The position numbers and the translations under genes are program-made. A stretch of 19,860 nt of DNA. It comes from Candidatus Heimdallarchaeota archaeon. Its GTDB lineage: Archaea; Asgardarchaeota; Wukongarchaeia; Wukongarchaeales; JBHIFL01. The notes beneath the pieces were generated by a model that was not told the origin of the DNA, did not search any database, and was given only the letters and a program-made list of their open reading frames with translations. Of this stretch, positions 4,025 to 16,585 are shown piece after piece (position 1 is the stretch's first letter; the number at the start of each line of letters is the position of its first letter). The DNA is taken from NCBI GenBank assembly GCA_046761065.1, contig JBHIFL010000073.1, positions 1 through 19,860 on the forward strand. The letters are read 5' to 3'.

Positions 4025-7000
4025 TTATCCCGTTATTTGGAGTTCTAAAGCCATATCTGCTACTTCTGTCAGAGTTTGAAGTATGGATTCTACATCGGTT
4101 TGTGCTTCAGATATCTTATTTTTGTACGCAGTGAAATGTTCGTTTATCGTTTGAGCTGTTTTAGTGACTTCTTCGGTAAGTTTGGTTTTTGTCAAGGTGT
4201 TCTGTTCTTCAAAAATCTTTGAAGTTTTTCTTGCGATCTCGTTTACTTGTTTAGAGAGTATTTCGAGTGCATTCACCAGTTGAGTTTTTGTGTCCTTCAG
4301 TTTCTGTTTTAATTCGCTAAATGACACCTCGTTTCCTAGCATCGCCGCTTCTTTCATTTGGATTTGTTCAACTAATTCAAGCAGGGATTGGTTAGCTGCC
4401 TTAACTCCCTTTTTAAGGGCTTTTCCGCTCTTAGTGAGCTGCTTAAGGATCGCGTCAACTGCTGACTCCATTTGTTCCGGTTCAATGCTCTTTACTTCTT
4501 CAGAGTCCATTAAGGCCCCAAGGTGTTCATTTAAGGTTTCAAAGTGGACATCAAGCCTTTGGTTTAGTGTGTGACATGACTCCTCAAGTTGTTTGATTGT
4601 GTTTCTAATGGAATCAACAGTGCTGGTACATAATTGATCGTTGACAATGTCATTAAGCCGCTTCTCAATCAATGCCAAATTTTCCAATAATGTTTCAACT
4701 TGTTTAGAAAGTGTAGGTAGTTTGTTATAATGTTCATGGGCCAGAATTTCTTCAGTTAGTGACAATAGTTGGCTAACTGAGGATTGATTATTTTGGATGT
4801 TGGCCTTAACCTCATCAATCCCTGGTAGAACATTTGTGGCCATTTCCTCAGCGGCAGTATGTGCGTCTTCAATATTTTCTTGAATTGCGTGAAAAGCGGC
4901 CTCAATTGCCTCCATGTATTGGTGAGAGAAGCTTTGGAGGGCTTCCTTTTTTTGATAAAGCCCAGAAATCCTTTTCTCCAACCCTTCTTTAAGCACTTCT
5001 CCGATTCTGGTTCCAAGGGTTGTCCCAATTTCCTCCAGTAAGTTCTCGAGTTGATTGTTAGCTACAGTTATATTTTCGGTCAAGGTTTGAGTTGAGCGTG
5101 TCATATTTGTGCTTGTGTCTTCTATCTCGTGAAATTGATCTGAGACCAACTTCCTAGTAATCAGTAATGTCTGGGTTAAGAATTCTTCGACCTTTAGATT
5201 TATTTCTCCACTTAATTCTGTAAATATATCCACTGTTTCATTTATTTTTTCAGTAAAAATCGTTTCAACGCTTTTATATTGTTCATCCAGTTCTGAACAT
5301 AATTCATCCGCTTTAGATTTCAGCTCTTGTTCAACCGCATCCAATTTTTGAACGATTTCTGTCTCTACTTGGAGTCTGAATCCTTCAAGTAGGTCGGTTG
5401 TTTCGGTTAATAATTCTTCATTTCTTTTTTCTCTTTGATGAGCACGATTTAAAATTTGCCTTATTTCTGAGAAAAGATTGGTTAATCGATCCATATGTGC
5501 TGTAACGGAATCTTGTAGAGTTTTTGGTAATATTCCCGCCAAATCTCCCAAGGATTGTTGTATTCCCTCTTGGACATCACGTTTAGCTGTTTCAAGCTTG
5601 GATGTGGTTTGGTTTTGGCTTTTCAAAAGACTATCAATCGATTCTTGTTCTACTGTCTCAATACCAACTCTCTGATTTGCCGACATATCCTCTAGTCGAG
5701 ATACGAAAGAAGTAGTTGTAGTCCCCAATTGAGATACAGTCGCTGCGGTGATAGCCCTAACACGTGATGCGATCATGCTTGTTTTTTCACGGATACTATC
5801 TTCTAATTGCGTTTGAAGCTGTGAAACAATTTCAGGAGTTTTTTCATTTACTGCAACCTGCATATTCATTATTGTATTTGCAAATTGCTCCAGTTGCGTT
5901 TTTTGCTTCAAGACGGATTCTTCAAGATGACCTGCTTCCTGTATTAGGTTTGTATGCCATGTCTTTGCATGTTCAGTAAGAAGAGTAGATACTTCTAGCT
6001 GCGTTTCCTTTAATAAATCAGTTCGCTCATTGATAATCTCCTTGATCGTCGCTTCTATCTTTGAAACCGTCTGTTCACCTACCTTTTCCACATTTCCTTG
6101 AAGGGTATCTACGGACCCAAATACCAATTTGACTGTTTCTTCAAGAGTTCTTGCCACCTCACTTGTCATGTGATCTAATTCGACTATAACAATGTCCCGT
6201 ATTTTACTAACCTCGGCTTGAGCTGTGGCATTGTTTTCCCGCGCCCCCGTATCAAGGGTCATCTCGATCTTTTCGAGTTCAGTTTTGACTTTGTTCTTTA
6301 AGACCTCCATAGATTTCTGAATTTTTTCTATCATAGGCCACATAGACGATTTGTACAACTCAACAGCTTCTTTCGCATAGCGGGCTAGTTTATCTTGGAA
6401 ACCAAATTGCATCTCATCCGATGTACGATCGTAAAGGGCTCCAACTTCCCGAATGATGTTTTCGGCCGTATCGATCATTCCCTGTTGTCGAACGATCAAT
6501 TCGTTAAGTGATTCCCTGAAGTCACTTATTAATTCCTCATTTTGAGTGATCTGACGCTTTAATGAAGTTAGTAGCGTATTTTTGGTGTGAGATTGAGATT
6601 TATTTAGAATTTGATTTAGATTATCTTTGTACGCAAGATCCACCCGTGTGACAGCATTTACCCAATCAGATGAAAATGCTTCTGAGCTTTTAAGTTGTTG
6701 ATCAAAGGCGATTCGCAGTTTACCGAGGATTAAGTCTTTAGTTTCCGTAATGTTCTTCATAATCTCAGTCAATGAACGAGGTACATTCGTTTCTTGCGCT
6801 TTCATATTAATTTCTAACTGTTCCAATGTGTTCGTAAAATCGTCATAACCTTTCTTTTTTCGCCCAAAAATCTTGCTTATTCGGGGTTCGATGAGCTGTC
6901 GAAGTTCTTCGATATGTTTGAGTAACTGTTCGATACTTTCCAGAATTGTTTGACGAGTTTGAATAAGGAGTTCTTGCTGTCGCTCCTCAATGCGGTTAAA

Positions 7001-9847
7001 CAACTTTTGTGAAAAATCAAGAATTAAATGTTGATCTTCTCTAAGTTTTGGGATGAATATCCCAATTTGTTTTTCTAATTCTTTCCGAACGTCATTGAAA
7101 AGCTGAGGGAGATCTATTTGAAGCGAAGCAAGGCTACTCTTGAGCGTCTCAGTAACTCCATCAATTGTATGGTTTATTATAAGATTATTTTCTTCCAAAA
7201 ATGCTTGCAGAGACTCATTAAATTGTGAGAGTCTATCAAATAAGTCTGATTTTTTATTGAATAATTCACGTTCGGTTGTTTTCATCGTTTCCGCAAATGA
7301 AGCCATTTGTTTATTGACCAACCCTTCAATAAATTCACGCGAATCGCTTTCAAATCCTTCTAACGCTTGTGTTGTAGTTTTAAGGGCTAAAGCCATCTTT
7401 GTTTCTAAAAGATTTGAGAGATTTTTAGTTTCTTCATCAACTAGGTCATAGCTGTTCTTTCCTGAAGCGATTAAAACGTTGGTAGTCTTTTCCACTCGCT
7501 TTAGAATATTCTCAGTCCTTTCTTTTAGCGCGTTATAAATTTTCTCGCGAGTTTCCTCGACAACCCCTGATATGGTCATATCTTCCTTATCGGCACGCTT
7601 CTCTAACTCAATTCTTGCCTTCTGCACTAATTGTGCAAATTCATCACGTATCGTTAAAAGATTTGTGCGGACTGTTTCCAGTAGTGTCTTTTGGGCATGT
7701 TGGAGATCTCGTATGGTATCAGAAAATCTAGGATCTATGCTCTCAACTGTCCTCTTGGAAGCTTCTAAAATGTCTTCGGCAGTTGTTGAAACTGTCTTCG
7801 CTGTTGTTAGTGTGATTTTTTCGAGAATTTGTAAAGTGCGCTCAAATTCGGCAGTACTCTGAGAAATGATGTTCTCGCCTAATTCCATAAGAATTGTTCG
7901 TATACCATCCGTTAAGATTTGGAGAGATGGACTTACATCGATGTTATTTAGCGTTTGTTCCGCCTCTTCGGTTAATTGTTGCCAACTTCCAGTCAGTTGT
8001 GATTTCAGTTCCCCCAAGAGTTCTACCGTAGAGTTGGTGAAGCGTGCAATTGATGTTTTTAGTCCCTTTGAATATATTGTAAAGAGCCCCTTCTGGACTT
8101 CCACGATTTTTTCAAGCTCTAGTGTGAATTCATTTTGCCCCCGTTCTAAGGTTTCTGTGATCTCCGAACCAATTCGATTCAATGCTAATTCAGTAGCATT
8201 TTCCATTGACTTCATCAAATTGGTTAATTCTCCTCCTAATTGCTCATTTAGATCACTAAGCCGATCTGTGAGATGTCCCAATTTTTCTTTGTCTCCGTCT
8301 AATAGCGTGGCAAATGTAGAACTAAGTCTGTCGTTCAGATCTTCATACAAGGAGACAACTATTGTAATGAGTTTTGATGTAAAGGTCTTATAGAACTCTG
8401 AACTTGTTTGTAGCCACTCTGTTGTTTGTGTGAGAGAAGTTTGAAGTAAATCAATAACGGAGGTCTTACCTTCTGTGGGTATTATCGTTCCCATGGAAAT
8501 TGTGCGCTTTGAAATTGATGTCAAAAAGTCTTGGATTTCAGTTTTAAGCTCAGTAAGGGTAGGATCAGTTCTGATAAAATCTTTATCAAGTGATTTCCGC
8601 TTATCCAGAACTTGTTGATGGATGTTTTCAAGCTTCGAAATCTTTTCTTGCACTTGATTCTTAAGCTCATCAAAAGTTTTCTTAACGGATGAGATTGTTG
8701 GTTGCAGAACTTCATCTATTGTTGAATTAACTGTTGCTAATGTGCGTATAAGTTGATCTTCAGAACCTTTTTGATTGTTTGTAAGTTCAATAGGCGAATC
8801 CTTCATATCTCCTTGTGTTTCAAGAAATTGCGCAATGAGAGTTGAGATCGTCGAATGTCTTTCTTTCAGAGTGCTGGAAGCTGACGCAATTTGGGAGGAA
8901 AAGGACTCTAGTAAGTTTGTTGCCGATGTATTAGTCGTTGAAAGGGTGGGGACGGTTTCGTGAAGGATTTCGACAAGTTGCTTTTGAGCTGTTGTGTCCT
9001 GCTTAGTAATGGTCGCATATTCCCTGACAATTGTCGAAAACTCGTCTTTCCAATTGTCCAACCCTTGGAGAATCGCTTCTTCAAGTGTGGTACATATTGT
9101 CCCAAGTGTTGAATCGATCTGGGCAAGATCTTCAGCTTGTTTGGACAGCTGGCGAATCTGTTCTTGAAGTTCTTTCCGTGTTTGAGTCGAATCTTGGAGG
9201 AGTTGGGTGAGTCTTGATCCATAGATTTTACGAAGTGAACTTATCGGTTGCCCCTCACTGATCGCTTGATGGACAAATTCCCCTAATGTCTGTAATGTAT
9301 TGTCAATTTGTGATTGAAGCCCTTCAACAACTTCTGTGATCCTCTCTTTAGGATGGTTTACTTCTTTTTTTCCCCCGACTATATCCTTTTGGGTTTCTAA
9401 TAAAGGAACCAGGGCTTCATTTAATGTGGATAATTTTTCATTGGATTCAGCAACCAACGAAGCAACTAGATTCGGGAACTCCTCTATTGCCTTCGAAAAA
9501 TAACCACCTAAGTCCTTAAATCCGACTTGGATGTGTTTAGTTAGTTCAGATAAGTCTTCGGATGTGTTTTTTTCCAGGTTATCAAGATCTTCAGTCAATT
9601 CGCCCAATAACAAGTTGGCTACATGTAATCCAATGGGAGTGGGTACCAGAAGTTCGCCCTCTTCACTCAGTTTCTTGACAATTAGTCCTTGCTTTACTAG
9701 CTCATCCACAGCGCGAGTGATCTGGACCTTCTTCAGACCCGTATGAGACCTTATTGACTCAGGAGAACGGATCCCAAAGGCCATCAGGGCTCCCAATATG
9801 GTTTTTTCCGTCTCCTTGAGAGTAACAATACTTTCTGAGGCAGGCAA
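4025..9847 (-). CDS. Giant protein: N-terminal TrmB-like wHTH plus ~1850 aa of amphipathic helical/coiled-coil repeats
   Basis: 1940-aa ORF with TTG start after AGGGGG. The N-terminus LKETEKTILGALMAFG...TGLKKVQITRAVDELVKQGLIVK is wHTH-like. The remainder is rich in L/E/Q/T/K/S, poor in P/G, and shows 11-residue hydrophobic periodicity. Confidence 0.85.
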   Translation of the reverse strand: MPASESIVTLKETEKTILGALMAFGIRSPESIRSHTGLKKVQITRAVDELVKQGLIVKKLSEEGELLVPTPIGLHVANLLLGELTEDLDNLEKNTSEDLSELTKHIQVGFKDLGGYFSKAIEEFPNLVASLVAESNEKLSTLNEALVPLLETQKDIVGGKKEVNHPKERITEVVEGLQSQIDNTLQTLGEFVHQAISEGQPISSLRKIYGSRLTQLLQDSTQTRKELQEQIRQLSKQAEDLAQIDSTLGTICTTLEEAILQGLDNWKDEFSTIVREYATITKQDTTAQKQLVEILHETVPTLSTTNTSATNLLESFSSQIASASSTLKERHSTISTLIAQFLETQGDMKDSPIELTNNQKGSEDQLIRTLATVNSTIDEVLQPTISSVKKTFDELKNQVQEKISKLENIHQQVLDKRKSLDKDFIRTDPTLTELKTEIQDFLTSISKRTISMGTIIPTEGKTSVIDLLQTSLTQTTEWLQTSSEFYKTFTSKLITIVVSLYEDLNDRLSSTFATLLDGDKEKLGHLTDRLSDLNEQLGGELTNLMKSMENATELALNRIGSEITETLERGQNEFTLELEKIVEVQKGLFTIYSKGLKTSIARFTNSTVELLGELKSQLTGSWQQLTEEAEQTLNNIDVSPSLQILTDGIRTILMELGENIISQSTAEFERTLQILEKITLTTAKTVSTTAEDILEASKRTVESIDPRFSDTIRDLQHAQKTLLETVRTNLLTIRDEFAQLVQKARIELEKRADKEDMTISGVVEETREKIYNALKERTENILKRVEKTTNVLIASGKNSYDLVDEETKNLSNLLETKMALALKTTTQALEGFESDSREFIEGLVNKQMASFAETMKTTERELFNKKSDLFDRLSQFNESLQAFLEENNLIINHTIDGVTETLKSSLASLQIDLPQLFNDVRKELEKQIGIFIPKLREDQHLILDFSQKLFNRIEERQQELLIQTRQTILESIEQLLKHIEELRQLIEPRISKIFGRKKKGYDDFTNTLEQLEINMKAQETNVPRSLTEIMKNITETKDLILGKLRIAFDQQLKSSEAFSSDWVNAVTRVDLAYKDNLNQILNKSQSHTKNTLLTSLKRQITQNEELISDFRESLNELIVRQQGMIDTAENIIREVGALYDRTSDEMQFGFQDKLARYAKEAVELYKSSMWPMIEKIQKSMEVLKNKVKTELEKIEMTLDTGARENNATAQAEVSKIRDIVIVELDHMTSEVARTLEETVKLVFGSVDTLQGNVEKVGEQTVSKIEATIKEIINERTDLLKETQLEVSTLLTEHAKTWHTNLIQEAGHLEESVLKQKTQLEQFANTIMNMQVAVNEKTPEIVSQLQTQLEDSIREKTSMIASRVRAITAATVSQLGTTTTSFVSRLEDMSANQRVGIETVEQESIDSLLKSQNQTTSKLETAKRDVQEGIQQSLGDLAGILPKTLQDSVTAHMDRLTNLFSEIRQILNRAHQREKRNEELLTETTDLLEGFRLQVETEIVQKLDAVEQELKSKADELCSELDEQYKSVETIFTEKINETVDIFTELSGEINLKVEEFLTQTLLITRKLVSDQFHEIEDTSTNMTRSTQTLTENITVANNQLENLLEEIGTTLGTRIGEVLKEGLEKRISGLYQKKEALQSFSHQYMEAIEAAFHAIQENIEDAHTAAEEMATNVLPGIDEVKANIQNNQSSVSQLLSLTEEILAHEHYNKLPTLSKQVETLLENLALIEKRLNDIVNDQLCTSTVDSIRNTIKQLEESCHTLNQRLDVHFETLNEHLGALMDSEEVKSIEPEQMESAVDAILKQLTKSGKALKKGVKAANQSLLELVEQIQMKEAAMLGNEVSFSELKQKLKDTKTQLVNALEILSKQVNEIARKTSKIFEEQNTLTKTKLTEEVTKTAQTINEHFTAYKNKISEAQTDVESILQTLTEVADMALELQITG

Positions 9848-11580: not shown

Positions 11581-12846
11581 ATGCAACGAAAAATTCATAG
11601 ACAAGCGCTTTGGGGATTTTTGCTTTTAGCCTTGTTTATAATAGGGATATTTGCCATTTCTGGATGCGTTGGGCAAGAAGGAGGAGTCACAGAGACCGTG
11701 ACCACTACCAAAACCGTGACAGAAGCCGCAGAGACCGTGACCACTACCAAAACCGTGACAGAAGCCGAAAAGAAAATAAAAGCCGCTTTCATATATGTCG
11801 GTCCAATAGGAGACTACGGTTGGAGCCACGCCCATGACCAAGGCCGCCTTTACGTAGACGAACAGTTTGACTGGCTCGAAACAGTCTATGCTGAGGCTGT
11901 TCCAGAAGCGGATGTAGACCGGTTCATTGATCGGTTTATCCAAGAGAAGAATAGTGATATCGTCTTCACCACATCTTTCGGATTCATGGATGGGACAATC
12001 GCTGCCGGTGAACGCTACCCTGACAAAGTGTTTATGCATTGTTCCGGGTACAAGAGATCAGTAAATGTTGGAACATATTTCGCCGAGTTCTATCAATTGT
12101 ACTATTTGAACGGGCTTATGGCTGGTGCGCTCACTAAGACAAACAAGCTGGGATATGTAGCCGCGCATCCTATTCCAGAGGTGATTCGCCATATCAATGC
12201 TTTCACATTGGGAGCAAAAGAGGTTAATCCCGATGTTGAAGTTCATGTTCGGTGGTTATTTGCGTGGTATGATCCCACTCTAGCCCGAGCAGCTACGGAA
12301 GAATTGATTTCGTTGGGATGTGATGCAATCGCTTTCACAGAGGATAGCCCGACGGTGTTACAAGTTGGTCAAGAACACACAGAACAAGGCGATCAGATCT
12401 ATACCTTTAGCCATTACTCACCTATGCAATCATTTGGTCCCGATTCCTGTGTGAGTGGCCAGTTGGTTCATTGGGAAGTACTTTATGAAGAGATCCTGAT
12501 GCGGCTTTATTTGGGAGTTTGGGACAACAGGGACTACTATTACCTGCTTGCGCAAAATGCTGTTGAACTCGGCGGGGAATTCGGGGTTCCAATCAATCCA
12601 AAATTCGAAGGAGAGCTCAAAGAGAAAATGGTAACGGATCCCATCCTCGGATCAATCAGTGTTTACGATTTAGTTATGACAAGGCTCAATCAAATGAGTG
12701 AAGTAGTTCCGCCTTTTGACCCATTTACAGGACCAATCTTTGATCAAGATGGGGCATTAAAAGTGCAAGATGGAGAGCGCCTCGGGCATGATCCTCTCTG
12801 GACCATGGATTATTTCGTAGAGGGTGTTGTTGATAGGATCCCATAG
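11581..12846 (+). CDS. BMP/PnrA-family ABC transporter substrate-binding lipoprotein (nucleoside/purine)
   Basis: Signal peptide with lipobox (ISG-C), Thr-rich linker, KAAFIYVGPIGDYGWSHAH, VFTTSFGF and IPEVIRHINAFTLGA motifs. SD GGAGG upstream. Confidence 0.93.
   Translation: MQRKIHRQALWGFLLLALFIIGIFAISGCVGQEGGVTETVTTTKTVTEAAETVTTTKTVTEAEKKIKAAFIYVGPIGDYGWSHAHDQGRLYVDEQFDWLETVYAEAVPEADVDRFIDRFIQEKNSDIVFTTSFGFMDGTIAAGERYPDKVFMHCSGYKRSVNVGTYFAEFYQLYYLNGLMAGALTKTNKLGYVAAHPIPEVIRHINAFTLGAKEVNPDVEVHVRWLFAWYDPTLARAATEELISLGCDAIAFTEDSPTVLQVGQEHTEQGDQIYTFSHYSPMQSFGPDSCVSGQLVHWEVLYEEILMRLYLGVWDNRDYYYLLAQNAVELGGEFGVPINPKFEGELKEKMVTDPILGSISVYDLVMTRLNQMSEVVPPFDPFTGPIFDQDGALKVQDGERLGHDPLWTMDYFVEGVVDRIP
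11690..11767 (+). repeat. Perfect 2 x 39-bp tandem repeat encoding a Thr-rich linker
   Basis: CAGAGACCGTGACCACTACCAAAACCGTGACAGAAGCCG at 11690-11728 and 11729-11767. Confidence 0.95.
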
Positions 12847-12897
12847 TTGCTTGCCAAAGAACCCAGATCCCGCTTCCGTACTGCATTATATCCTCCC

Positions 12898-12911
12898 TTT
12901 TTTTCTTTTTT
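12898..12911 (+). terminator. Oligo-T archaeal-type terminator/attenuator after the binding-protein gene
   Basis: T7-C-T6 tract about 50 nt after the stop codon at 12846. Confidence 0.5.
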
Positions 12912-13016
12912 GAACCGTTGAAAGTCTTTTTATTATCTTTCATCATGAAGGATGGAACTGATGAATTTAGTTGAATGAAGCTCGATTGAAAACAAGCCGA
13001 AATTGAGGAATCATAA

Positions 13017-14598
13017 ATGAATAACCAGCCAATTGTCGTATTACGTCAAATTAGTAAGGCATTTCCTCCGATTATTGCAAATGAAAAGATCAATTTCGAG
13101 ATGAAAGCGGGAGAGATCCACGCGCTTCTTGGTGAAAAATGGTCAGTGTAGTCTAGACCAGATTCCAGGAATCTCACTGACCATTCACCAGAATGGAGCG
13201 GGGAAAACAACCTTAATGAAGATTCTATTCGGCTTGTACAGACCAGATGCAGGAGACATTTTTATCAAAGGGGAACATTTTGAAAGTTTATCTCCTGCAA
13301 TTAGTGTGGCACATGGAATAAGTATGGTCCACCAGCATTTCAAATTGATTGAACGTCATACAGTTGCAGAGAATATTGCTTTGGGCTTTGCAACACACCA
13401 ATTGTACCCAACACGTGAAGTTGAGAAAAAAATTGAAGAGTTTTCAAAGAGATACGGACTTTTAGTCAATCCAAAAGCTTACATTTGGCAGTTGTCCGCG
13501 GGTGAACGTCAACGAGTGGAAATCATCAAGGCACTCTATCAAGATCCGGATATCCTAATTCTAGATGAACCTACATCTGTTTTAACGCCAGGTGAAGTGC
13601 AAGAGTTATTTTCAACACTCCAGCTGATGAAAAAAGAAGGGAAAGGAATTGTTTTCGTCACTCACAAATTAGATGAAGTGATGGCAATAAGCGACCGAGT
13701 CACAGTACTAAGACGCGGAAAAGTGGTGAATACGCTCAACTGTCAAGAAACAAATAAGCAAGAACTCGCGAAAATGATGGTGGGGCGTGAAATTCTATTT
13801 ACCTTGCAAAAAGCACCGGTGGAACAAGGTAAAGTAGTAGTAGAGATTCAAAACCTTAGGGTATTTGATGATATGGGTGTCCTTGCTGTCAAAGATATAT
13901 CCCTCATCGTACACGAGGGAGAGACCGTGGGCATCGCAGGAGTGGCAGGGAATGGGCAACGAGAGTTTGTAGAAGCGATCACAGGGTTGCGAAAAGTGAG
14001 TAGTGGGAGAATACTGCTTATGGATAAAGATGTGACTAATCGATCACCACGAGTCATCACCGAACTTGGGGTGGCCCACATTCCTGAAGAGCGCATCAGA
14101 CTCGGACTTTCCCCTAACTTGTCTGTAGAGGAGAATCTCATTTTAAAGACGTACTATATTTCGCCCTACAGCGACGGAATCTTCTTAAATACAAGCTATA
14201 TTTCCTCGTTAACAAAGAATTTGATGGCGGAGTACGAAATAATGGCCCCTAGTCCGTCAATCCCAGCAAAACATCTTTCGGGGGGGAATATTCAACGCTT
14301 GATCCTCGCGCGGGAACTGACAGGTGAGCCTCGCGTGATTATTGCAGCACAGCCGACGTACGGCCTAGACGTCGGAGCGACGGAATATATCCGGCAACGG
14401 CTCTTGGAGGAAAGAAAACGAGGCGCGGCTATCTTGTTGGTATCCGGGGATCTTGAAGAGATCCTGGCACTCAGCGATAGGGTAGCTGTAATGTTTGAAG
14501 GAACAATCATGGGAATAGTCACTGTAGAAGGAGCTAATATTGAAGAAATTGGGTTAATGATGGCTGGAACCAGAAAAGTTGAGGATGAGAGGATATGA
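13017..14598 (+). CDS. Nucleoside/sugar (CUT2) ABC transporter ATP-binding protein, intron-containing: join(13017..13136,13192..14598), 508 aa
   Basis: Exon 1 from ATG 13017 (GAGG at 13005) reads MNNQPIVVLRQISKAFPPIIANEKINFEMKAGEIHALLGE. Exon 2 reads NGAGKTTLMKILFG... and contains LSAGERQRVEI, ILILDEPT, VTHKLDE and a second NBD with LSGGNIQR. The unspliced frame stops at TAG 13149-13151. Confidence 0.9.
13137..13191 (+). other. Putative 55-nt bulge-helix-bulge (tRNA-endonuclease-type) intron in an mRNA
   Basis: Central 4-bp helix GGTG(13131-34)/CACC(13186-89). 3-nt bulges AAA(13135-37) and AGA(13190-92). Perfect 11-bp intron stem 13138-48/13175-85. Exon-exon stem 13123-30/13193-200. Removal restores GGT GAA AAT GGA GCG GGG AAA ACA. 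Confidence 0.85.
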
Positions 14599-15656
14599 GG
14601 CTTAAAATTCAAAGACGAGAAAAGACGTCGGGGTGGGTGTCCATTGTTGTGCTGATCAGCTCTATTCTTCTCAGCTTAGTTGCTGTCGGGGTCATTTTTA
14701 TGGGATACGGGATTAATCCATGGGTCGCCTATACACAGATCTTCCGTGCGGCTTTTGGAAGCTATTACGGAATTTCTGAAACCTTTGTTAAAACAATTCC
14801 CCTCTTATTGTGTAGTTTAGGATTAGTCGTTGCATTCAAAGCCCAAATATGGAACATTGGAGCGGAGGGACAACTTTTTATGGGAGCAATCGCAAGTACT
14901 TGGGTTGCTTTATCCTTTCCAGACATGTCGGCTTTCTTGCTCCTCCCCATTATGTTTATAGTTGGATTTATGGCAGGTACCTTCTGGGGTATAATTCCTG
15001 GGATCCTCAAAGCGAAATTACAAACCAATGAGGTGATTTCAAGTCTCATGTTCACGTATATAGCTGCAAAATTACTCGAATACCTTGTTTATGGTCCATG
15101 GCGAGAACCTGGAGCACTTGGAGGTTTTCCTCACACTCCAATGTTCTCACCTTCAGCACAGCTGCCCCGCATTCCCGGGACACGGCTTCATTACCCGACA
15201 CTTATTGTCGGATTGATTTTAACGGGCATACTCTTTGTAATGTTGCAACGAACCAAAATTGGATACGAGATCCGAGTGACAGGAGACTCGCAAGAAGCGG
15301 CACGGTATGCTGGAATGAACTATCTGAAGACAGTAGTCTTTGTGATGGCTGTCAGTGGAGGTCTAGCGGGACTAGCAGGAGTCGGGGAAGTAGCAGGAAT
15401 TCAACATCGATTGAGAAAAGGAATTAGTCCCGGCTATGGCTTCACAGCGATTATCGTGGCATGGCTAGGGCGGTTAAATCCCATTGGAACACTCTTTAGT
15501 TCAATTCTGTTTGGTGGCCTGCTAGTAGGAGGAGACATGATTCAAGTCTCTCTAGGGCTTCCAGTCGCTGCAATTTACATTTTTAACGGCATTATGCTCT
15601 TTTTTGTGTTAGGAGGGGAGATTTTATTGCATTATAAGGTGAAATGGGAAAGGTGA
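14595..15656 (+). CDS. Nucleoside ABC transporter permease 1 (BPD_transp_2 family)
   Basis: Multi-TM protein with WNIGAEGQ, NEVISSLM, GYEIRVTG and GYGFTAIIVAWLGRLNP. ATGA overlap with the ATPase stop. Confidence 0.93.
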   Translation: MRLKIQRREKTSGWVSIVVLISSILLSLVAVGVIFMGYGINPWVAYTQIFRAAFGSYYGISETFVKTIPLLLCSLGLVVAFKAQIWNIGAEGQLFMGAIASTWVALSFPDMSAFLLLPIMFIVGFMAGTFWGIIPGILKAKLQTNEVISSLMFTYIAAKLLEYLVYGPWREPGALGGFPHTPMFSPSAQLPRIPGTRLHYPTLIVGLILTGILFVMLQRTKIGYEIRVTGDSQEAARYAGMNYLKTVVFVMAVSGGLAGLAGVGEVAGIQHRLRKGISPGYGFTAIIVAWLGRLNPIGTLFSSILFGGLLVGGDMIQVSLGLPVAAIYIFNGIMLFFVLGGEILLHYKVKWER

Positions 15657-15661
15657 ATAAT

Positions 15662-16585
15662 ATGGAAATGGAAGCGATAATGGATTTTTTATCCCTAACA
15701 ATAATGGCAGGTACCCCTCTTTTGCTTGGCACTCTCGGAGAGATCTATGCAGAACGCGCGGGAATCCTTAATCTCGGAATAGAGGGTATGATGATTATGG
15801 GTGCAATAACAGGATTTAGTGTTACTCATTTAACAGGTAGTGCATTATTCGGTGTGCTTCTTGCGATGCTAGTTGGAGGTCTACTATCACTGATCCATGC
15901 GTTTGTTAGTATTTCATTACGTGGCAATCAAGTTGTCTCCGGATTAGCCCTTACAATGTTTGGTCTGGGTTTAAGCGGGTTAATAGGCCGGAACTATATC
16001 GGTATTCCGGGAAAATCCCTTAAAACGAAACCTATTCCAGGTTTGGAGCGTATCCCATTTTTAGGACGAATTATATTTCAGCAAGACATCTTAATTTATC
16101 TATCATTAATTCTTGTGCCCGTTCTATGGTTCTTACTTTTCCGAACAAAAGTAGGGATTGTGATTCGCTCTGTAGGAGAGGATCCAAGCGCTGCAGATGC
16201 AATAGGCATCAATGTACATCGTGTCCGATACTTCTGTGTGGTGTTCGGAGGAGCTATGGCGGGTCTAGGAGGTGCGTATCTCTCCCTTCGACTGGCACCC
16301 GCATGGATAGAGGGAATGACAGCTGGGAGAGGCTGGATTGTAGTTGCTTTGACGATTTTCGCGATGTGGAATCCGAGCCGTGCATTGATAGGAGCCTATT
16401 TGTTTGGTGGAGTAGAAGTTTTACAGTTTCGATTACAGCCCTTCGGCATCCCACCCAGCTTTTTAGGAATGCTCCCATATCTTGCTACAATCATTGTCTT
16501 GCTCATCGGGTCTAAAGAAACGTTGAAGAAAAAGATGGGGGCACCTACAGCGCTGGGGTTTCCATATAGCCGAGAAGAAGCCTAA
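15662..16585 (+). CDS. Nucleoside ABC transporter permease 2 (BPD_transp_2 family)
   Basis: ERAGILNLGIEGMM, IRSVGEDPSAADAIGINV, GMTAGRGWI and LPYLATI motifs. ATG 15662 follows SD AGGTGA (ORF open from 15644). Confidence 0.93.
   Translation: MEMEAIMDFLSLTIMAGTPLLLGTLGEIYAERAGILNLGIEGMMIMGAITGFSVTHLTGSALFGVLLAMLVGGLLSLIHAFVSISLRGNQVVSGLALTMFGLGLSGLIGRNYIGIPGKSLKTKPIPGLERIPFLGRIIFQQDILIYLSLILVPVLWFLLFRTKVGIVIRSVGEDPSAADAIGINVHRVRYFCVVFGGAMAGLGGAYLSLRLAPAWIEGMTAGRGWIVVALTIFAMWNPSRALIGAYLFGGVEVLQFRLQPFGIPPSFLGMLPYLATIIVLLIGSKETLKKKMGAPTALGFPYSREEA

Follow-up and report, generated by a model that had tools for sequence, protein, structure and literature searches.

Splicing of a coding sequence by the tRNA splicing endonuclease (EndA) is documented in the searchable literature for cbf5 only (PMC2738675, PMC7714728, PMC10485636), the pseudouridine synthase gene of Crenarchaeota whose pre-mRNA carries a bulge-helix-bulge (BHB) intron (Watanabe 2002; Yoshinari 2006; Yokobori 2009, PMC2738675). 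A further archaeal mRNA, HVO_1309 of Haloferax volcanii, has a BHB intron in its 5' untranslated region (Schwarz 2020, PMC7714728; the spliced product is noted in PMC10485636), and a 2023 review states that more such mRNA cases probably await discovery (PMC10485636). The tRNA genes of Asgard archaea are heavily interrupted, as described in a preprint that treats tRNA and not protein genes (bioRxiv 10.64898/2026.10.13.758758), and a literature search combining Asgard, splicing endonuclease and mRNA returned nothing relevant. Here we describe an insert of 55 nucleotides (nt) in the ATPase gene of an ATP-binding cassette (ABC) importer, located on a 19,860-nt stretch of DNA from a Candidatus Heimdallarchaeota archaeon (contig JBHIFL010000073.1; this whole stretch is referred to as the window). 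The insert, at positions 13137-13191, is with high probability a BHB intron within the ATPase coding sequence of an Asgard importer of the Bmp/PnrA type. The mechanism is of a known kind; what is new here is the gene and the phylum.

When the 55 nt are removed, the two exons join in frame (...AGEIHALLGE|NGAGKTT) to give a tandem ABC ATPase of 508 amino acids (aa) with an exact Walker A motif, GENGAGKT. The nucleotide junction created in this way is CTTCTTGGTGAA|AATGGAGCGGGG, and the predicted peptide diagnostic of the spliced product is AGEIHALLGENGAGK. The ATG of exon 1 has the sequence GAGGA 7 nt upstream. Exon 2 matches Pfam ABC_tran in two stretches (E 1e-42) and covers positions 37-510 of a 510-position NCBIfam ATPase profile, the remaining ~36 N-terminal residues being supplied by exon 1. 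Only once the insert is removed is the Walker A motif of the first nucleotide-binding domain (NBD1) whole, and the product then belongs to the tandem-NBD ATPases of Bmp/PnrA-type (CUT2-like) importers. An alignment of the spliced protein with 12 full-length intron-less homologues from Thermoproteota, Korarchaeia and bacteria shows no gap at the junction, and exon 1 aligns gap-free with the N-termini of all 12. The initial annotation of this DNA had predicted cuts that restore the frame and GENGAGKT in a 508-aa protein, and both the translation and the collinearity with intron-less orthologues agree with it. Its statement that the unspliced frame ends at TAG 13149 after 44 aa, while the rest of the operon is intact, likewise holds, the latter by the Pfam matches of the neighbouring genes.

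Archaeal EndA cuts after the second base of each of two bulges. In pre-tRNA, the 3' bulge consists of two intron bases and nucleotide 38 and abuts the anticodon stem, while the central helix is formed by exon bases 32-35 and the 3' end of the intron, an arrangement that underlies the eukaryotic anticodon-intron pair. The ATPase insert has the same handedness as tRNA (Table 1). Two 3-nt bulges lie on opposite strands, 4 base pairs (bp) apart, with the 3' bulge abutting the exon helix; the central helix is built from bases of the 5' exon and the 3' end of the intron, and each predicted cut falls after the second bulge base. Seven of the eight positions of the exon helix are paired, one of them as G-U, and the eighth is a U-U mismatch at 13129/13194. 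The mismatch is irreparable, as it is fixed by the second position of a Leu codon (13129) and the third position of an Asn codon (13194), and it leaves this helix relaxed, with one single pair separating the mismatch from the 3' bulge. The motif is strong in its central helix, with a pair probability of 1.0 in the ensemble, in its 5' bulge and in its intron stem. The region folds with -38.1 kcal/mol (z = -4.9; 0 of 200 shuffles as good), and a second z-score is -5.4. Because the cut falls in a run of A residues, three adjacent cut registers lead to the same spliced sequence, and the product alone therefore does not assign the exact cut site.

Table 1. Coordinates in the window of the predicted intron, its structural elements and the surrounding genes.
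Feature	Position	Strand	Remarks
Predicted BHB intron, 55 nt	13137..13191	+	removal restores the frame and the Walker A motif
Exon-exon helix h, 5' strand CGCTTCTT	13123..13130	+	pairs with 13193-13200
Exon-exon helix h, 3' strand ATGGAGCG	13193..13200	+	pairs with 13123-13130
Central 4-bp helix, 5' strand GGTG	13131..13134	+	pairs with 13186-13189
Central helix, 3' strand CACC, intron 3' end	13186..13189	+	pairs with 13131-13134
5' bulge AAA	13135..13137	+	predicted cut 13136/13137; invariant in relatives
3' bulge AGA	13190..13192	+	predicted cut 13191/13192; invariant in relatives
Intron stem h', 5' arm	13138..13148	+	pairs with 13175-13185, perfect 11 bp
Intron stem h', 3' arm	13175..13185	+	pairs with 13138-13148
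Exon 1 of ABC ATPase gene	13017..13136	+	40 codons, ATG to ...HALLGE, the first half of Walker A
Exon 2 of ABC ATPase gene	13192..14598	+	468 codons and stop; begins NGAGKTT; rest of NBD1 and whole NBD2
TAG closing the unspliced exon-1 frame	13149..13151	+	44 aa; kept in relatives
Substrate-binding protein, Bmp/PnrA family	11581..12846	+	Pfam PF02608, E 7e-42
Permease 1	14595..15656	+	Pfam BPD_transp_2, E 7e-46; start overlaps ATPase stop by 4 nt
Permease 2	15644..16585	+	Pfam BPD_transp_2, E 1e-38

The initial annotation had described an exon stem with 7 of 8 pairs and one G-U, a 4-bp helix, two 3-nt bulges and a perfect 11-bp stem, and every base and coordinate of this description was recovered. 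Its term "canonical" is appropriate for the geometry; it does not extend to the exon-side helix, which is relaxed, or to the productive register, which is not the free-energy optimum. The region 12850-13350 has no match to an Rfam family, and no second copy of the intron was found anywhere in the genome. Sixteen nt of the intron's apical hairpin (AGATTCCAGGAATCTC) recur exactly at C83:14118-14133 within an aminotransferase-like gene, where they encode KIPGIS; with an E value of 0.036 in the genome this match is probably a coincidence.

The insert is present in the DNA itself. Four DNA runs, which come from one hydrothermal-vent study and may be the assembly's own source, gave contigs that are identical over 12700-13700 at 17-37x, with zero variants, an unchanged A run and no insert-less joint. 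The insert was assembled independently in SRR30758827, in SRR10836659 + SRR10836660, and in ERZ23499022. An assembly artefact is ruled out by this identical presence in four runs, which also bears out the A run and the insert that the initial annotation had wanted confirmed in DNA reads. The only close relatives in the protein search, with identities of 92% and 90%, lie on contigs of other data sets and have the same operon and the same 55-nt insert at the same site, so that three lineages could be compared (the window, L023 and L024-L026). Gene calls in these relatives consist of 488-aa and 460-aa proteins together with an orphan open reading frame (ORF) of 44 aa or 67 aa, which is the mis-start by annotation pipelines that the initial annotation had foreseen.

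Next in similarity are homologues at 65% identity, which are full-length and carry no interruption. Contigs of the genome collection hold only bacterial homologues of at most 50% identity, forty relatives in the genome library have intron-less homologues of at most 54% identity, and the metagenome scan found no further intron-bearing relatives. A scan for the spliced junction retrieved 29 contigs, all with distant intron-less ABC homologues of at most 51% identity in which the spliced 29-mer is contiguous, and returned no transcript and no close allele. As homologues beyond the three lineages are distant and intron-less, the gain of the intron cannot be dated past those lineages.

Comparison of the three lineages indicates that both exons are under selection. 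At a dS of 0.30-0.40 between the lineages, dN/dS is 0.09-0.16 for exon 2 and 0.08-0.13 for exon 1, and the exons measure 120 nt and 1404 nt in all three, without stops or indels. Between the window and L024, nine of the 13 changes in exon 1 are synonymous (P ~0.001). Exon 1 is thus selected in its own frame and must be translated and needed, which is sensible only if it is joined to exon 2. The insert itself diverges by 0.09-0.11, has no indel and is 55 nt long throughout; for comparison, synonymous-site divergence (pS) is 0.25-0.31, and the two neighbouring spacers diverge by 0.14-0.22, with indels.

These values bear directly on the view that the gene is dead, having received a palindromic insertion (a mobile-element remnant or a replication error), and that the transporter is decaying or works without this subunit. 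Such a view would account for an unspliced frame that stops after 44 codons, and it gains some room from a paralogous ATPase of 50% identity on contig C26 and from the fact that the transporter is not essential. Neutral decay over a dS of 0.30-0.40, however, would have disabled 1524 nt of coding sequence many times, whereas the exons are free of stops and indels at a dN/dS of ~0.1. Moreover, the length of the insert is exact, its sequence has changed less than the spacers nearby, the other genes of the operon are intact, and the lack of another copy in the genome is unlike a repeat element. We consider a dead gene very improbable, and a pseudogene as such is ruled out by the selection on both exons in three lineages.

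The relatives can form the predicted structure as well. Folded separately, the three versions all give the same two-bulge hairpin, and 94% of the paired cells across the three lineages are preserved as pairs, with 90% in the exon helix and 100% in the central helix, where the relatives have one G-C to G-U change. One pair of the intron stem occurs as U-A, C-G and U-G and is the only pair changed on both sides; two changes give G-U. This pattern appears compatible with the structure, and we do not take it as proof.

The genome also encodes the enzymes of the tRNA splicing pathway. An EndA alpha subunit is found at C15:7589-7843, a beta-like subunit at C2:24654-24914, and RtcB at C14:28843-30144 (534 bits). 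Of the two EndA-like proteins, one of 195 aa aligns with the C-terminal, catalytic half of two-unit EndA models and has Tyr, His and Lys residues placed like the catalytic triad, as judged by eye; the other, of 214 aa, resembles the N-terminal half and the beta-subunit models. From these matches, the predicted architecture of the host EndA is (alpha-beta)2. An enzyme of this form with a broad-specificity loop has been reported for Asgard archaea (PMC5829648), and cbf5 splicing has been associated with the (alpha-beta)2 form (PMC10485636). Among named organisms, the alpha subunit has its nearest relatives exclusively in Asgard groups (Loki/Promethearchaeota, Jord, Hel, Frey, Baldr, Njord, Odin, Heimdall and Hod), in keeping with the Asgard host that had been thought probable from the DNA.

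In the same genome, which is 91% complete, aragorn recognized only 17 tRNA genes and called 14 of them with introns, which suggests that heavy interruption keeps most of the tRNA genes from being recognized. Most of these calls look unreliable or relaxed, and the tRNA introns were therefore unusable as a positive control for a genome scan.

The initial annotation had suggested that more such introns may exist genome-wide, and this expectation was met by inserts in further genes. The only rpoA1 gene, encoding RNA polymerase subunit A', is interrupted by 31 nt (C2:18012-18042, minus strand), directly after which the frame stops. This insert combines a 4-bp helix with two 3-nt bulges, GCAG[ATC]...CTGT[AAA], and its removal joins ...MSAARIITAD to TYDEDGTPISSGLMDSRLG and an 854-codon frame. 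In the only uS5 gene, a 35-nt insert able to form a hairpin (C19:7215-7249, plus strand) separates ...NISLVQR from QTDAGRKSRFK, which is read in another frame; the motif of this insert is relaxed and failed the strict BHB scan. As both genes are the only copies, the organism must remove these inserts from the mRNA, which considerably raises the prior for an intron in the ATPase gene. A Trm112-like gene (Pfam E 1e-12) carries a strict 36-nt BHB motif at C41:5404-5439 on the minus strand, after ...YPVIDGIP; the motif reads TCCT[TAA]cttgcaag..cttgcaagGGGA[AGT], and its removal builds a TAT codon and continues with MLPDKL. This case is weaker, and the need for splicing less certain, because the Pfam domain ends at the junction.

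The BHB scan covered both strands of the whole 4.4-Mb genome. Its strictest class, inspected by eye, comprises only 57 motifs of this quality with introns below ~100 nt, or ~8.5e-8 per site and length, and includes both the ATPase intron and the trm112 candidate. When the criteria were loosened and combined with a filter for joined ORFs, ~4400 matches were obtained, a number equal to that of controls with shifted splice sites, so that this setting has no discriminating power. Of the genome-wide BHB search advocated by the initial annotation, only the strictest class was readable.

Taken together with the enzymes, the structure suggests the following pathway. In the pre-mRNA, the ends of the two exons would form a helix, the last bases of exon 1 (GGUG) would pair with CACC at the 3' end of the intron, and the 11-bp stem would close the intron. 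The two 3-nt bulges would thereby be presented 4 bp apart to the heteromeric (alpha-beta)2 EndA, which is expected to cut at 13136/13137 and 13191/13192. We infer that RtcB would then ligate the exons and that the 55-nt intron would be freed, probably as a circle. Only the spliced mRNA would encode the 508-aa ATPase with a whole Walker A motif, translation of the unspliced form ending after 44 codons. Since the start of permease 1 overlaps the stop of the ATPase gene, unspliced mRNA would probably under-translate the coupled permeases as well.

Several observations weigh against the intron interpretation. The first concerns the energy of the motif. The productive 4-bp register has a free energy of -30.0 kcal/mol, 6.9 higher than the minimum-energy fold at -36.9 kcal/mol, in which the register is shifted so that U13130-A13190 and U13129-G13191 pair, the 3' bulge is AAU and the bulges lie 7 bp apart. 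If the bulge bases alone are forced open, the best fold reaches -33.6 kcal/mol, still 3.3 above the minimum, with a small exon-side internal loop, and the ensemble pair probability of U13130-A13193 is 0.003. EndA would thus have to catch a minor conformer or tolerate a relaxed exon-side helix. Each relative, furthermore, has one mismatch within the 11-bp stem, and covariation is not significant, with 331 of 500 shuffles reaching the observed score, a test that has no power with three distinct sequences. Conservation of the apical loop also exceeds what recognition as a BHB would demand by itself; this excess may be accidental, may point to a role of the RNA after excision, or may come from a degree of translation of mRNA that was not spliced. 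No RNA run was found among those carrying the operon DNA, and the spliced junction and the circle are thus unseen. Finally, the frame of exon 2 is open across the whole insert (NGQCSLDQIPGISLTIHQ) and continuous with exon 2 in all three lineages, and five of the eight substitutions in the insert are synonymous in this frame, against an expected fraction of ~0.23-0.3 (binomial P ~0.02-0.06).

The last two findings would fit an insert that is translated and not spliced, which could come about in two ways. Gene fission would yield a 44-aa peptide (ORF 13017-13151) and a 488-aa or 489-aa protein starting at GTG 13132 or TTG 13129, with an ORF overlap of ~20 nt; in L023, a product with this GTG start was indeed annotated by a gene caller. 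Alternatively, a +1 ribosomal frameshift on GAA AAA T would place ~19 extra residues (KGQCSLDQIPGISLTIHQ) before NGAGKT. For either version, pS and pN of the insert in the exon-2 frame resemble the exon values, and the residues ISLTI before NGAGKT alternate in hydrophobicity like the native strand IHALL. An open frame of 18 codons, on the other hand, arises by chance with a probability of ~0.4, and the 12 aligned homologues all run through this site without an insertion or a break. Fission would part the P-loop from its strand and deprive the catalytic chain of its first 40 residues, and no Shine-Dalgarno-like sequence is found 5-10 nt before GTG 13132. The frameshift would put 19 residues inside the Walker A motif. 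Judged by prfB and Ty1-type sites, GAA AAA TGG is to our knowledge no +1 shift site, as no stop or rare codon follows. Translation also offers no reason for the insert to be bounded by a two-bulge, 4-bp geometry to which exon bases contribute. A translated insert, for which GQCSLDQIPGISLTIHQ would be the diagnostic predicted peptide, is in our view improbable.

The same hairpin could in principle be skipped by the ribosome, as in bypassing of the T4 gene 60 type, with take-off at GAA 13134-13136 and no RNA processing. A stable hairpin, a stop codon shortly past the take-off region and a gap of ~50 nt are reminiscent of gene 60. The only matching landing codon, however, is GAA 13191-13193, from which translation would resume at 13194, whereas NGAGKT needs 13192; gene 60-type bypassing is ruled out by this wrong landing frame. 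The stop also lies four codons past the take-off codon and is not adjacent to it, and no nascent-peptide signal is known here. We know of no description of translational bypassing in archaea. Such a mechanism is hardly credible at this site, where we found no known slippery or take-off sequence with a functional product, for bypassing or for a programmed +1 frameshift. An intron of the BHB type thus remains the preferred reading of the insert.

From the protein families that it encodes, the operon appears to be a nucleoside-type (CUT2-like) ABC importer of the Bmp/PnrA family. Directly after the binding-protein gene, the segment 12897-12950 has an oligo-T run followed by an A/T-rich TTTTTATTAT box, both kept in the relatives. 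This arrangement may provide the ATPase and permease genes with a promoter of their own and cause partial termination after the binding-protein gene. Upstream, on the minus strand, positions 4025-9847 hold a 1940-aa ORF with a strong AT skew and a faint match to Apolipoprotein-type repeats, which adjoins the operon also in the relatives L024 and L026.

A wider role of the tRNA-splicing enzymes is conceivable, and we put it forward only tentatively, at somewhat less than an even chance. They might act as a general mRNA splicing system on at least four genes (the ABC ATPase, rpoA1, uS5 and probably trm112), the introns being mobile mini-elements that insert again and again at highly conserved codons such as those of P-loops. 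If so, splicing efficiency would set the output of the ATPase and the coupled permeases relative to the binding protein. The intron proposed here would place tRNA-type mRNA splicing in Asgard archaea, the closest known relatives of eukaryotes, and in an ordinary metabolic gene. Split or mis-started gene calls of the kind seen in the relatives would distort Asgard proteomes and pseudogene counts. The locus may also serve as a concrete substrate for asking how protein-only splicing deals with mRNAs under translation and whether introns of this sort act selfishly, serve regulation or do both.

Among known systems, the splicing of HAC1 and XBP1 by Ire1 and tRNA ligase or RtcB resembles the predicted reaction in that a protein endonuclease makes two stem-loop cuts, a ligase joins the exons and the frame is changed. 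It differs in its nuclease and motif and is stress-regulated. With the BHB introns of pre-tRNA and pre-rRNA, which are processed by EndA and RtcB, the ATPase intron shares the recognition motif and the predicted chemistry. Its substrate, however, is a translated mRNA, so that splicing must compete with ribosomes, and codon constraint on the exon-side helix forces a U-U mismatch, unlike in tRNA. As in HVO_1309, an mRNA is predicted to be the substrate of the splicing endonuclease by way of a BHB motif. The HVO_1309 intron, in contrast, lies in an untranslated leader and interrupts no frame, its host has a homodimeric EndA, and knock-down and in vitro experiments have provided proof.

The closest parallel is cbf5, for which splicing was demonstrated by reverse transcription PCR and in vitro cleavage, whereas the ATPase intron is known here from DNA alone. 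Both are short coding-sequence introns with a somewhat relaxed BHB motif (for the relaxation in cbf5, see PMC10485636) and a patchy distribution among relatives. The hosts share the heteromeric (alpha-beta)2 type of EndA, and a tRNA ligase joins the cbf5 exons, as is predicted for those of the ATPase gene. The two introns have no sequence relationship. The gene interrupted here encodes a transporter ATPase and not an RNA-modification enzyme, and it belongs to an Asgard archaeon and not to a member of the Crenarchaeota. Unlike the cbf5 intron, the predicted intron lies in the codons of a Walker A motif, and the genome around it holds several such inserts, including those in rpoA1 and uS5.

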